Shown: positions 9,174 through 44,515, numbered from the stretch's first letter. The stretch: 64,000 bases of DNA from Candidatus Micrarchaeia archaeon (GCA_041663445.1 JBAYMR010000005.1:996-64995); one strand, 5' to 3'. The notes: a model not told the origin generated them from the sequence alone. Made by a program: numbers and translations.

Positions 9174-10421
9174 CTAACCGCTTCTTTCAAGCAGGAATTC
9201 CACTACGGGCTTGCGTTCCACCTTTCCGTCGCGCCCGCGCGCGTCGCGCGTGAGAATGAGCCCTCGCGGGCAGGAAAACCTGGCCATGAACTTTTCCATG
9301 CCCGATGAATCCGCTTTTTTTCCCCATTTTATCTCGACCGGTAGGGGCTTGCCGCCAGAATCGAGGACCATGTCCACCTCGTCCTTCTGCGGGGTGCGCC
9401 AGAAGAATTGCGCGCCTGAATGGAGCACGCATGCCGTTTCCACCAGCCTTGACGCGTGAAGCTCGTCCGCGGCAGGGGTGAGCGCGGAGCATGCGAATGC
9501 GGGGTAATATTTCTTCAGCTTGCGCTCGGTGGAAGTGCGGGATTTCGAGAAATTGTAAATCTTCCTCACCAGAAGCGAAGCCTCGAGTGCGTAGAGGTAT
9601 TTGGAAAGCGTCTGGCGAGAGACCCCCAGATCCTTGGACAGCGAGCTTGCCTCAACCAAAAGCCCGGGTGTTTCAATTATTATGTTCATCATTGCCTGCA
9701 TGATTGACGGCTCTTCTATGGAAAAAAGCCGCGGGACGTCCGAAAAAAGGACCTTTTCCAATATGGACTCGCGGACATACTTGCGCACCAATGCCGCGTC
9801 CTTGGCGCCCACAAGCTCAGGAAACCCGCCGGTGAGCAGGTATTCTGTAAAAAGGGCGCGGAGCTCCGCCGCATTCAGCCTTGGGTTCGCACCCAGGCCT
9901 GAGAAGGCGGCATATTCCGAAAAGGAAAGCGGTTTCAGCTGGAACTCGTATATCCTTCCGGCAAGGCTTTCGCGCGCCTTGCCTCTGATGAAGAGGGATT
10001 CCGAGCCTGAAAGGAATATCTTGTGCCGGCCGGAATCATAAAGGCGCTTGACCTTTTCCTGCCAGTTTGGCACTTTTTGTATTTCGTCGAAGAACAGGTA
10101 TTTCGGCTCAATGCCGTTTATCGCCTTTGCAATGGATGGCAGCCCGTGCGGGTCGGCATCGGCAAAGTCGTCAAATGAGAAATACATGATGGACGTCGCT
10201 TCGTTTTTTTTGAGAAGCTCGCCTATTGTCCTGTAGATGAGCATTGTCTTGCCGGTCCTGCGCAGGCCGGTGATGGCAATCATCTGGCGCTGCGGCAGGT
10301 ATTTTTCGATTTGGCCCGAAAGCTCGCGCGGAAATATGCCCTGCGCCGGCGCGCCGCCCTTCCACCATGGGTTGAGCTCCACTGCCGCGCGCTCCAATTT
10401 TATGTCATCCATAGTTAACAC
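9174..10421 (-). CDS. AAA+ ATPase (AAA_14 / DUF4143 family)
   Basis: Walker A motif GLRRTGKT, Walker B-like LFFDEIQ, and a C-terminal DUF4143-like region. Confidence 0.8.
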   Translation of the reverse strand: MLTMDDIKLERAAVELNPWWKGGAPAQGIFPRELSGQIEKYLPQRQMIAITGLRRTGKTMLIYRTIGELLKKNEATSIMYFSFDDFADADPHGLPSIAKAINGIEPKYLFFDEIQKVPNWQEKVKRLYDSGRHKIFLSGSESLFIRGKARESLAGRIYEFQLKPLSFSEYAAFSGLGANPRLNAAELRALFTEYLLTGGFPELVGAKDAALVRKYVRESILEKVLFSDVPRLFSIEEPSIMQAMMNIIIETPGLLVEASSLSKDLGVSRQTLSKYLYALEASLLVRKIYNFSKSRTSTERKLKKYYPAFACSALTPAADELHASRLVETACVLHSGAQFFWRTPQKDEVDMVLDSGGKPLPVEIKWGKKADSSGMEKFMARFSCPRGLILTRDARGRDGKVERKPVVEFLLERSG

Positions 10422-16128: not shown

Positions 16129-17379
16129 TCAGGTAAAACCATCGCCTGATTTGCCGTCCTGCACGCCTTTCCTTTCTTTTTTGCCGCCCATTTTCTCAAC
16201 AATCTCAATGTCGTTGGCTACTGCTTCCCTCAACTCATCGTAACCCTGCTTGGCAAGAATTTTGTCCTGGGCGTCTTTTGAGAGGGGTTCGATGCTGGAA
16301 TTTCGAGCGGGTTGTGTGGGTTGCAGCGATACACCCATGCTCAACGCGAGCTTTTCATAAGCGCCAGTGCCAAAGGCGGAGTCGTATTCTTGCTTGAGTT
16401 GCTCGTCACTATAAGAGGAGATACGCTCGATAATTGTGTTATATTTTTCGGTGAGTTTGTTGGCTGACAGCGTTAAATTTACCGCAGTATCCGCGCCATA
16501 AAAAAATGAGCTGCCGTGTGCGACAATAGAACGCATTTCAGACAGGGACTCCTGCCTTGCTGGTTGGAATTCAACCAAGAACAAGTCCGCTGTGGCTTGG
16601 AGTTTAAAGATTTTGGTTCTTCGTTCATCAATATGGTCCGCCGTGGCTTGGAGGTTAAAGATTTTGGTTCGTTCATCCGTATTAATCGAAGAAATGGGCC
16701 CAAATAGCGCAGCAATTTTGGATTCAAGCAAAACGCTTACATAACTGTCCCAACTGATCATGTTGGAAACCAATGTGTTGATTTCAGCCTGTGATGGGCT
16801 TTTTCCCGTCTTTTCAAAAATCACATACTCTCCATTAGCCCCAGAAGTCAGAAGATACGCCTTGCCACTTTTGGAAATTTCGATTGACCCGATGGAGCCG
16901 TTGCCATACATTTTTAGGGATTTGTCTCCGGCAATTTGATATCCTCCATCCTTGAGCGCCTGTTGCAGTGATGAGCCATTGGGGACAGATAAAATGGAAG
17001 ATTGCCCGAGATCGTACGTTTCCTTGGCGATTTTTATATAGCGGGCCATCGCAGCGGGGTTATTGGCTGTTTTCCAGAATTTCTGTTCATAGCTTCCATG
17101 CTCAGAGGCAGTAAGCGGCCTAAAAACAAGGAACTCCTTAACAACATCGGCTTTTTGCGTTTCCTCCTGAGTGCAGATCACAACACACTTAATATTGATG
17201 TGTTTGCCAAATGAATTTGAAAGTGTTTGAAGGAGAAAATCACTAGAATTGTCTTTGAAATTGATGCCGGTGCGCGCACTCGAAGAAGCAACAATCAGTT
17301 TCCTTGCGTCATCGGCGCTCTTGATGTGAACCGGAACCAGGCCGGCTGCGTTCTCTTTGTAGACCTGGAATACAAGCAT
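16129..17379 (-). CDS. orphan protein in a visibly lower-GC segment
   Basis: 416-aa uninterrupted ORF with no TM segment, signal peptide or recognisable domain. Composition is AT-richer than the flanking genes. Contains an in-frame 51-nt tandem duplication. Confidence 0.6.
   Translation of the reverse strand: MLVFQVYKENAAGLVPVHIKSADDARKLIVASSSARTGINFKDNSSDFLLQTLSNSFGKHINIKCVVICTQEETQKADVVKEFLVFRPLTASEHGSYEQKFWKTANNPAAMARYIKIAKETYDLGQSSILSVPNGSSLQQALKDGGYQIAGDKSLKMYGNGSIGSIEISKSGKAYLLTSGANGEYVIFEKTGKSPSQAEINTLVSNMISWDSYVSVLLESKIAALFGPISSINTDERTKIFNLQATADHIDERRTKIFKLQATADLFLVEFQPARQESLSEMRSIVAHGSSFFYGADTAVNLTLSANKLTEKYNTIIERISSYSDEQLKQEYDSAFGTGAYEKLALSMGVSLQPTQPARNSSIEPLSKDAQDKILAKQGYDELREAVANDIEIVEKMGGKKERKGVQDGKSGDGFT
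16585..16677 (-). repeat. 51-nt in-frame tandem duplication inside the orphan gene
   Basis: Copy 1 is 16585-16629. Copy 2 is 16636-16677 and lacks 3 nt. They encode ERTKIFNLQATADHID / ERRTKIFKLQATADLF. Confidence 0.8.
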
Positions 17380-17411: not shown

Positions 17412-17711
17412 CTAGTATTTAAACCCCGCCGTCCTGCCGCAGGAACAGGCATATTCCGCCGTGCGCGTGCGCTTCCGAAGGCGCACGCGGGTGTTCTTCC
17501 CGATGATGCGCGGCATGCCGCAGGATTTGCAGAAGCGCGCGCGGTCATTTTTGGAAAAGCGGCAGTTGTAGCGGGTGGAGAGCTTGCGCGCGAGGAAGAC
17601 ATAGCGCTTGGCGTGCTTTTCGTCGCCTGCGCGCAATGCCTTTTCCGCAAGCGTAAGGAGTATGCCAATCCTTTCATAGACTATTTCGCGGATGCCAGTC
17701 TGCTGCGCCAT
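17412..17711 (-). CDS. rnp4: RNase P protein component 4 (Rpp21)
   Basis: The last 99 codons of track ORF 17412-18290, starting at MAQQTGIRE. Zn-ribbon CKSCG...CSCG and an Rpp21-like helical N-terminus. The upstream part of the track ORF runs through a tRNA gene. Confidence 0.8.
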   Translation of the reverse strand: MAQQTGIREIVYERIGILLTLAEKALRAGDEKHAKRYVFLARKLSTRYNCRFSKNDRARFCKSCGMPRIIGKNTRVRLRKRTRTAEYACSCGRTAGFKY

Positions 17712-17795: not shown

Positions 17796-17871
17796 AAGGA
17801 GAAAGTGGGCCCGACGATGGAGCGCGGCAGCGCGACAGATTTTGTGCAACAGCACAAAACAAAGGGCACAC
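17796..17871 (-). repeat. duplicate of the tRNA 3' end with acceptor-mimic fold
   Basis: The 22-mer AAGGAGAAAGTGGGCCCGACGA occurs at 17796-17817 and 17875-17896 (plus strand). On the minus strand the copy is preceded by GTGTGCCC (pairs with GGGCCCAC, one mismatch) and hairpin TTTTGTGC-TGTT-GCACAAAA. Confidence 0.6.
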
Positions 17872-17884
17872 TTTAAGGAGAAAG

Positions 17885-18110
17885 TGGGCCCGACGAGATT
17901 TTCGAGATGCCGCAAACATGGGGTTTGGGCTGTCATTCGAACTCGTGACCTACAGCTTTCCAAGACACAATCGTCTGTTCCGGAGGAACTGGCGAATTGC
18001 CGTGCGCTTGGCACGACATTTTTGCGAGAGCGTGTCATATAAGACGTGCGTCGGAGGAGACGCTTGCGCGACTCTTCCAATGCCGCTCTAACCAGCTGAG
18101 CTACGGGCCC
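17885..18110 (-). tRNA. tRNA, isotype unresolved, with a T-loop (59/60) intron and about 110 nt of further intervening sequence in the anticodon-arm region
   Basis: Minus strand reads GGGCCCG TA GCTC AGCTGGTTA GAGC G ... GCTGT AGGTC ACGAG TTCGAA [37-nt intron, 17899-17935] T CTCGT CGGGCCC A. The acceptor, D and T arms are perfect. The anticodon arm could not be assembled by eye. Confidence 0.6.
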
Positions 18111-18135: not shown

Positions 18136-18145
18136 GATTTAAACC
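18136..18145 (-). promoter_or_regulatory. TATA box (GGTTTAAATC) 26-35 nt upstream of the tRNA 5' end
   Basis: Sequence and spacing are typical of archaeal tRNA promoters. Confidence 0.5.
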
Positions 18146-44272: not shown

Positions 44273-44380
44273 AGCCCCATCGTCCAGTGGTCAAGGATAC
44301 GAGGCTCTGACGAACCGGATCTTGCCCGCCTTTCGGGGCGGAGATACCTCGGGACATCGGTTCGAATCCGATTGGGGCTA
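44273..44380 (+). tRNA. tRNA-Gln(CUG) with a 35-nt canonical intron
   Basis: AGCCCCA TC GTCC AGTGGTCAA GGAT A CGAGG CTCTGA [intron] A CCTCG GGAC ATCGG TTCGAAT CCGAT TGGGGCT A. Has the A1:U72 pair typical of archaeal tRNA-Gln. Bulge-helix-bulge geometry: CTCT pairs with GGAG, flanked by 3-nt bulges. Confidence 0.85.
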
Positions 44381-44403
44381 CTCTTTTCTTTACATTAGGT
44401 TTC

Positions 44404-44449
44404 GCCCCAATTCTCGCCACCCTTCGGGTGACGATCCGATTGGGGCTAC
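44404..44449 (+). repeat. tRNA-Gln 3'-end copy folded as a minihelix (unit 1)
   Basis: GCCCCAAT (44404-44411) pairs with ATTGGGGC (44439-44446). It encloses hairpin GCCACCC-TTC-GGGTGAC. ATCCGATTGGGGCTAC is identical to the tRNA from T-loop position 59 to 2 nt past the discriminator base. Confidence 0.6.
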
Positions 44450-44477
44450 TTTATCTTTCCTCTTTCCATTAGCTGCC

Positions 44478-44515
44478 GCCCCAATTCCCGCGGGGCTCGG
44501 CTGGATTGGGGCTAT
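44478..44515 (+). repeat. tRNA-Gln 3'-end copy folded as a minihelix (unit 2)
   Basis: GCCCCAAT (44478-44485) pairs with ATTGGGGC (44505-44512) and is followed by a T-rich tract. A collapsed third unit, GCCCAAATCGGGGC, lies at 44534-44547. Confidence 0.55.

Follow-up and report, generated by a model that had tools for sequence, protein, structure and literature searches.

Organisation of the locus

The locus lies on the minus strand of the window (the whole 64-kb stretch of DNA that was analysed) and consists, from 5′ to 3′, of a TATA-box-like element, a candidate tRNA gene of 226 nt, a trailing unit that ends in a second copy of the tRNA 3′ end, and the gene for the RNase P protein Rpr2 (Table 1). 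The neighbouring genes comprise those for eIF6, L31e, L39e and S19e in addition to Rpr2, and homologs of this Rpr2 come from sources named Candidatus Micrarchaeia, Micrarchaeota and Anstonellaceae, which places the window in a DPANN archaeon. Just 3′ of Rpr2 is an ORF of 416 aa (16129-17379, minus strand) that had no match in a Pfam search. It contains an internal tandem repeat (16592-16670), and the stretch that it occupies has the lowest GC content of the window (0.49 vs. about 0.57).

Table 1. Coordinates of the features assigned in and around the candidate tRNA-Ile gene, and of the tRNA-Gln locus in the same window.
Feature	Position	Strand	Description
TTTAAAT	18137..18143	minus	TATA-box-like; ends 27 nt upstream of tRNA position 1
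Putative tRNA-Ile(UAU) gene	18110-17885	minus	226 nt
Exon 1	18110-18081	minus	tRNA nt 1-29: acceptor 5′ strand, D arm, G26, anticodon-stem G27-A29
Intron 1	18080-18046	minus	35 nt, non-canonical position 29/30
Exon 2 (micro-exon), GTCTTATA	18045-18038	minus	8 nt, tRNA nt 30-37
Anticodon T34 A35 T36	18041-18039	minus	within exon 2
Intron 2	18037-17958	minus	80 nt, canonical position 37/38
CGCTCT in intron 2	18032-18027	minus	complementary to A21-G26 (18089-18084), i.e., D-stem 3′ strand and G26
Exon 3	17957-17936	minus	tRNA nt 38-59: A38, GCTGT, AGGTC, T stem 5′ strand, T-loop TTCGAA
Intron 3	17935-17899	minus	37 nt, T-loop position 59/60
Exon 4	17898-17885	minus	tRNA nt 60-73: T60, T stem 3′ strand, acceptor 3′ strand, discriminator A73
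Trailing unit	17806..17884	minus	T-rich trailer, GTGTGCCC, two hairpins, second tRNA 3′-end copy TCGTCGGGCCCA
Rpr2/Rpp21 RNase P protein gene	17412..17711	minus	Pfam PF04032; downstream of tRNA-Ile
tRNA-Gln(CUG) locus	44273-44514	+	gene 44273-44380 with 37-nt canonical intron; two units 44381-44514

Exon assignment and tRNA identity

The gene escapes standard detection. ARAGORN in its default (intron-free) mode reported no tRNA anywhere in the window, and Rfam yielded no family at the tRNA-Ile locus even at E ≤ 10, the only tRNA it recognised across the window being the tRNA-Gln at 44273-44380. When the three introns listed in Table 1 were excised, a 74-nt cloverleaf remained, which ARAGORN identified as tRNA-Ile(tat) for the window sequence and for 17 orthologs. 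We therefore consider, with a probability of roughly 0.9, that the locus is a tRNA-Ile(UAU) gene of Micrarchaeota (DPANN) interrupted by three bulge-helix-bulge (BHB) introns, an assignment drawn from sequence and comparison. Its minus-strand sequence starts with GGGCCCGTAGCTCAGCTGGTTAGAGCG and ends with ACGAGTTCGAA, the 37 nt of intron 3 and TCTCGTCGGGCCCA; CCA is not encoded. After intron removal, the molecule has class I features, with an acceptor stem of 7 bp, a D stem of 4 bp, an anticodon stem and a T stem of 5 bp each, a variable loop of 5 nt and the sequence TTCGAAT. The spliced anticodon arm reads GCAGT-CTTATAA-GCTGT and has a 7-nt loop with U33 and a purine at position 37. The four exons are co-linear on one strand inside 226 nt, and the gene is thus neither split nor permuted.

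A preliminary description of this DNA had recognised the outer parts of the tRNA, and the acceptor stem (GGGCCCG/CGGGCCC), the D arm (GCTC/GAGC), G26 at 18084 and the T stem (ACGAG/CTCGT) are indeed as it gave them. The same holds for the insert in the T-loop, 37 nt long at 17935-17899, in which TTCG pairs with CGAA in all four positions and both bulges are AA|T. The distance between G26 and GCTGT, described as about 125 nt, is 127 nt. GCTGT represents the 3′ strand of the anticodon stem and the adjoining AGGTC the variable loop, and the span from G27 to T43 amounts to 132 nt, of which introns make up 115 nt.

The apparent absence of a contiguous anticodon arm from this span was borne out by an exhaustive search of the window sequence alone, which returned not a single solution with one intron. 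One very long structured intron, which had been offered as an explanation, is thereby rejected. Allowing two introns and requiring a 5-bp stem, U33 and a purine at position 37, the search returned 113 formal arms, and only one of them, GCA|GTCTTATA|AGCTGT, had BHB geometry at both introns. The earlier suggestion of two or more further introns leaving a micro-exon was therefore correct: BHB introns at 29/30 and 37/38 flank an exon of 8 nt. A blind BHB scan of a single sequence produced too many chance matches, and BHB geometry became decisive once a proper anticodon arm was also required.

A different splice assignment would alter the isotype. If the intron were shifted by 3 nt, for example, the loop would become CUUGAAA and the product tRNA-Ser(UGA), and ARAGORN in intron mode did return Ser(tga), i(36,80), on the window sequence minus introns 1 and 3, and Ser(tga) again on the distant ortholog L070. 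Inspection of the sequence, however, revealed neither an outer nor an inner BHB helix at the shifted junction. Moreover, intron 2 ends in C in roughly half of the orthologs, which would place a pyrimidine at position 37, and the variable loop has 5 nt, whereas archaeal tRNA-Ser has a long variable arm. Only the UAU solution passed the BHB test at both introns. We accord next to no probability to a different isotype, and the ARAGORN intron-mode assignments Ser(tga) and Phe(gaa) were discarded. The second copy of the tRNA 3′ end (17817-17806) was also tried as an alternative 3′ exon and rejected: it is preceded by GCTCCA, so that the CGAA helix is lost and the T stem is mismatched.

Two sequence features that had been singled out in the insert take on another meaning under the tRNA-Ile(UAU) assignment. 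The TATA-like TCTTATATGA was rejected as a promoter, being the anticodon loop (C32-A37 at 18043-18038) together with the first bases of intron 2, and it was invariant in the 18 aligned orthologs. The direct repeat TTGGAA at the borders of the insert is coincidental. Its 3′ copy consists of TTGG from the central helix of the second BHB motif and the bulge of that motif; its 5′ copy is replaced in orthologs by TCAGTC, ATCCAG and other sequences, and this lack of conservation rules out a target-site duplication.

Conservation in orthologous loci

A search of public genomes and metagenomes with Rpr2 yielded about 70 loci, and 51 orthologs were parsed for BHB motifs. Every Micrarchaeota locus that reached far enough upstream carried the same tRNA just 5′ of the Rpr2 gene. 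The length of the orthologous tRNA gene ranged from 132 to 310 nt, and the alignment consisted of four constant blocks (GGGCCC...GAGCGGCA, GTCTTATA, AGCTGTAGGTCACGAGTTCGAA and TCTCGTCGGGCCCA) separated by variable inserts. Aligning the orthologous loci, a check that the preliminary description had itself proposed, thus resolved the exons and gave the anticodon as UAU (Ile). In the 18 loci that were spliced, the mature sequence was identical or differed by one compatible substitution, and the exon pattern was near-invariant across the approximately 50 parsed loci, with exon 2 itself nearly invariant. Rpr2 protein identity, by comparison, was 47%–91% overall, falling to 61% among the parsed orthologs and to 47% for L070. 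Judged from these alignments, the exons are under purifying selection in the relatives.

None of the 51 parsed orthologs, which are close or mid-distance relatives, lacked intron 1 or intron 2. Intron lengths were 30–39 nt for intron 1, 28–130 nt for intron 2 and 0–124 nt for intron 3. The distant ortholog L070 has no intron 1 and reads GAGCGGCAGTCTTATA (GCAGT-CTTATA) without interruption, which directly confirms the 29/30 junction; its canonical intron, the only one in that gene, is 27 nt long. The Rfam tRNA model scored 47–49 bits on orthologs that lack the T-loop intron, and its alignment of one of them (L017) paired GCA (27-29) with TGT (41-43). Substitutions at paired positions also agree with the proposed stems: the 27-43 pair changes from G-U to G-C in L010 and L014, and a T-stem variant, GGGAG/CTCCC, is fully compensatory in L022, L041 and L043.

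Geometry of the three BHB motifs

In the BHB register used here, a central 4-bp helix lies between two 3-nt bulges on opposite strands, each cut 3′ of its second base, with an outer and an inner helix beyond them. One such register fitted each intron in all 51 parsed orthologs. On this basis, the inserts would be archaeal BHB introns at 29/30, 37/38 and 59/60, with predicted endonuclease cleavage sites at these junctions.

Intron 1 has the bulges CA|T and AC|G. In its central helix, G24-G26 pair with CGC; three of the four positions are paired in the window (the exception being a G27-A mismatch) and three to four in the orthologs. The outer helix joins A21-A23 to U31-U33 (3 bp), and the inner helix (4 bp) forms part of a hairpin capped by GCAA. 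In the inner helix, 184 of 228 cells across the orthologs were paired, vs. 81–116 of 228 with slid partners, and each position showed three to six pair types, the sequence being fully changed between lineages while pairing was kept. Covariation cannot arise in helices that involve bases of the exons, which are invariant.

For intron 2, the bulges are TA|T and AA|A, and CTTA pairs with TTGG in the central helix at three of four positions (U34-U mismatch), or at all four where TTGG is replaced by TAGG. The inner helix, GACAC/GTGTC, has 5–6 bp in the window and 4–6 bp over the orthologs, and the outer helix, 2 bp long in the presence of intron 1, extends to 5 bp after that intron has been excised. 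The intron additionally contains a clade-specific hairpin extension of 50 nt. Intron 3 combines a fully paired central helix (TTCG/CGAA, 4/4) with the 5-bp T stem as the outer helix. The inner helix has just one G-U pair (2 bp if slipped by 1 nt), so that the motif belongs to the relaxed hBH type; the ‘textbook’ geometry previously ascribed to it holds for the central helix and bulges but not for the inner helix. Measured against the strict hBHBh′ form, with flanking helices of at least 2 bp, intron 1 has 3 + 4 bp, intron 2 reaches an outer helix of 5 bp only after the loss of intron 1, and intron 3 has an h′ of one pair.

The 226-nt RNA folded better than its shuffled counterparts (z = −4.4; 0 of 200 shuffles were as good). 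Nearest-neighbour folding assigned the BHB helices a probability near 0 and also failed to predict the D stem. It favoured instead a helix AGAGCG:CGCUCU, which would block the first BHB motif. Hairpins that had been listed in the insert, AGAC/GTCT and GCGTC/GACGC, can indeed pair, yet they compete with the helices supported by comparison.

The strong structure of the anticodon-arm insert, and an invariant motif, CACGCTCT, that goes beyond what BHB pairing explains, could alternatively point to a separate functional RNA, either a box C/D guide like that in the euryarchaeal tRNA-Trp intron or a self-splicing intron. None of the introns, however, contains an RUGAUGA or CUGA box, no Rfam family matched across the region even at E ≤ 10, and the distal part of intron 2 is missing in many orthologs, in which the intron has only 28–32 nt. 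A separate RNA is thus extremely improbable, and we retain the reading of two BHB introns around a micro-exon.

Intron turnover and the CGCUCU motif of intron 2

The T-loop intron was present in about 32 of the 51 parsed orthologs, and its presence differed among close relatives. The T-loop introns fell into at least four unrelated families, at positions 56/57, 58/59 and 59/60 and with lengths of 37–124 nt. One form, of 73 nt, occurs in L005, L006 and L020, and the 37-nt intron 3 of the window looks like a deletion derivative of it, arisen between two GCCCAA repeats. Enlargement was also evident: nested hairpin insertions have lengthened intron 2 in L041 and L043 and the T-loop introns in L004, L021 and L044. 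In a BLAST comparison, neither the introns nor the trailing unit had further copies within the 64-kb window, which thus gave no sign of intron transposition. Turnover of a lineage-specific kind was observed again in tRNA-Gln genes of distant Micrarchaeota, where L123 and L124 both have a D-loop intron around 20/21, which is accompanied by a canonical intron in L123 and stands without one in L124.

The CGCUCU motif in intron 2 was invariant in the 18-ortholog alignment and also occurs in L070, which is without intron 1. It copies the 5′ strand of the D stem and adds one pair on each side. Its helix with A21-G26 had a median predicted probability of 0.82 over 42 distinct pre-tRNAs, and in the precursor this helix is predicted to dominate, prevailing over the D stem; it would also compete with the first BHB motif. 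A tentative idea, to which we give considerably less than even odds, is that CGCUCU serves as a pseudo D-stem strand. If true, the motif may keep the precursor from folding into a cloverleaf before it is spliced.

Trailing units and a viral match

The trailing unit downstream of the tRNA-Ile gene contains an element, GTGTGCCC, that is complementary to the 3′-end copy and forms a closing stem with it. The copy is part of an exact 22-nt direct repeat, comprising the tRNA 3′ end and 10 nt of the trailer, which is located at 17875-17896 and 17796-17817, 79 nt apart. The repeat was not classed as a pair of att sites: the 22-nt copies are present, but the spacer between them is gene-free and only 57 nt long.

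One to three trailing units of 62–194 nt follow tRNA-Ile in about half of the orthologs (L003, L004, L005, L010, L012, L023-L028, L031-L036, L044, L047-L052, L060, L063 and L064). Each of them consists of a T-rich leader, a strand that is complementary to the 3′ copy and closes a stem with it, two hairpins and a terminal copy of the tRNA 3′ end, (T)CTCGTCGGGCCCA, corresponding to roughly nt 60-73. The number and order of units vary between close strains, and the hairpins within them show compensatory changes (hairpin 1). Similar units follow the tRNA-Gln(CUG) gene of the window and are built on the 3′ end of tRNA-Gln itself: an exact repeat of 17 nt lies at 44366-44382 and 44434-44450, a third copy lies at 44503-44514, and in each unit GCCCCAAT is complementary to ATTGGGGC. 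Close orthologs of this tRNA-Gln gene (L120 and L122) also have units, and the distant L123 and L124 are without them.

As to their nature, the units might constitute tRNA-specific cassette arrays (62–194 nt), an undescribed element trailing tRNA genes, although we regard this as a speculative and rather doubtful proposal. The order of such a cassette would be a T-rich leader, a strand complementary to the tRNA 3′ end, one to several covarying hairpins and a copy of approximately nt 60 to 73. The copied segment begins where the T-loop introns sit. The cassettes may act as decoy attachment sites or represent mini integrative cassettes, and T-loop introns may originate from them; a comparison of the T-loop introns with the trailing units for homology gave matches of 11–12 nt only. 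Other possible identities for the units are relics of integration and functional RNA structures.

Elsewhere in the window, a double hairpin on the plus strand (2551-2608; ctttttcgc..gcgaaaaag and ccctttttgcc..ggcaaaaag) matches a module in the 194-nt units of L025 and L026, with 92%–95% identity over 41 nt. This suggests, at the sequence level, that small palindromic modules spread between non-coding sites.

A viral contig (L096, IMGVR_UViG_3300035547_000267) contained at 10294-10325 an exact 31-nt copy of tRNA-Ile(UAU), covering nt 44-73 and one base of the trailer. The contig belongs to a tailed virus, encoding Terminase_6, a portal protein, a prohead protease and an HK97-type capsid. The 5′ half of the tRNA was not nearby, and the examined part of the contig revealed no integrase. 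The 31-nt copy resembles an attachment site, and tRNA-Ile may be an integration target.

These observations might also be taken to mean that the tRNA-Ile gene is a disrupted pseudogene, broken by small hairpin modules or integration events, with a functional copy elsewhere; the preliminary description had likewise listed an insertion-disrupted gene among its options. Hairpin modules do accumulate in the trailer and in the introns, the longest intron 2 measuring 130 nt and the longest T-loop intron 124 nt; a duplicate of the tRNA 3′ end lies 79 nt downstream, and the viral copy suggests an integration target. A gene decaying in this way is nevertheless very unlikely, since the exons are near-invariant while the Rpr2 proteins are only 47%–91% identical. 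In about 50 loci of diverged genomes, the exons are essentially identical while the inserts diverge, and a perfect cloverleaf is restored by the BHB register that every insert has kept. Conservation extends to the presumed promoter element, and no second tRNA-Ile was found in the 64-kb window. The retained splice geometry and nearly identical exons led us to reject disruption in favour of an intact, intron-containing tRNA-Ile(UAU) gene.

Proposed expression, splicing and decoding

TTTAAAT upstream of the gene would fit an archaeal promoter that leaves a transcript leader only a few nucleotides long, and elements of the TTTAAAT/TATAA type were found at an equal distance in the orthologous loci. 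Transcription from this TATA-box promoter would give a precursor of at least 226 nt. The splicing endonuclease would then cut out the three BHB introns and an RNA ligase would join the exons; the ends would be trimmed by RNase P and 3′ processing enzymes before the addition of CCA. The expected product is a 74-nt class I tRNA with the anticodon loop CUUAUAA. By analogy with the literature on the phylum and with Candidatus Micrarchaeum acidiphilum ARMAN-2, the endonuclease is presumably of the broad-specificity epsilon2 type. This enzyme cleaves relaxed hBH as well as strict BHB motifs, among them the 37/38 motif of the ARMAN-2 pre-tRNA-Ile(UAU) and a 59/60 intron (PMC3239211).

The order of cleavage may be constrained by the structure of the precursor. 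The first BHB motif occupies U31-U33 and the 3′ strand of the D stem, and the second requires C32-A35 together with an intact anticodon stem. Because the two are mutually exclusive, splicing would have to be stepwise. Under this structural model, intron 1 is probably spliced before intron 2, and splicing of the T-loop intron would be independent of both.

ARMAN lineages have neither TiaS nor tRNA-Ile(CAU) and use tRNA-Ile(UAU) (PMC3239211). By analogy, the tRNA-Ile(UAU) described here would read the AUA codon in lineages without the agmatidine system, and the gene is probably the only AUA decoder of the organism. Standard annotation would then show tRNA-Ile as missing in such DPANN archaea: because ARAGORN in default mode and the Rfam tRNA model miss the gene, DPANN annotations would seem to be without a tRNA-Ile.

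Comparison with known multi-intron tRNA genes

The closest known counterpart is the pre-tRNA-Ile(UAU) of ARMAN-2, which likewise belongs to the Micrarchaeota, has UAU instead of CAU with agmatidine and carries a BHB motif at 37/38 (PMC3239211). The ARMAN-2 gene contains a single canonical intron of 25 nt with a strict hBHBh′ motif (PMC3239211). The gene reported here differs from it by the additional introns at 29/30 and 59/60, by a canonical intron of 80 nt and by one mismatch in the central helix. A relaxed 59/60 T-loop intron with a poor inner helix is also known and is cleaved in vitro, but it is 13 nt long and resides in another tRNA, whereas the T-loop intron here has 37 nt.

Genes with several introns have been described in Thermoproteales, in which tRNA genes contain up to three (Sugahara 2008; Fujishima 2010; reviewed in PMC4033280, PMC4090602), the known maximum per archaeal tRNA gene (PMC4033280). 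Positions 29/30, 37/38, 56/57 and 59/60 are all published archaeal intron sites (PMC4090602). The present locus resembles the Thermoproteales genes in having three BHB introns in one gene, relaxed motifs and fast gain and loss among relatives. It differs in its host, which is a DPANN archaeon with a presumed epsilon2 endonuclease rather than a crenarchaeote with an (alpha-beta)2 enzyme.

The tRNA-Thr locus of Caldiarchaeum subterraneum offers a further parallel, since intron presence varies there among close relatives and a tRNA fragment lies beside the gene (PMC3293823). In that case, intron gain and fragments have been attributed to the integration of mobile elements (PMC3293823). The Caldiarchaeum fragment, however, is a 5′ piece at a distance of 1.8 kb, and a recombinase gene lies within this interval, in contrast to the copies of the 3′ end described here, which are 62–194 nt apart and separated by gene-free, structured spacers.

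Each element of the gene is thus already known, including three introns, their positions and a tRNA-Ile(UAU) with a canonical intron in ARMAN-2, and the gene is therefore a further case of the known multi-intron tRNA genes. What is notable here is the host phylum, the 8-nt micro-exon bearing the anticodon, the 80-nt canonical intron and the failure of ARAGORN in default mode and of Rfam to detect the gene. Three-intron tRNAs, which have been described as a speciality of Thermoproteales, would be extended to Micrarchaeota. The gene would also provide a natural set of epsilon2 substrates, in which strict, mismatched and hBH motifs occur in one transcript and splicing is forced to be stepwise. 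Finally, the comparison of roughly 50 genomes, in which T-loop introns have been gained, lost, replaced and enlarged at a single locus, bears on the origin of BHB introns.
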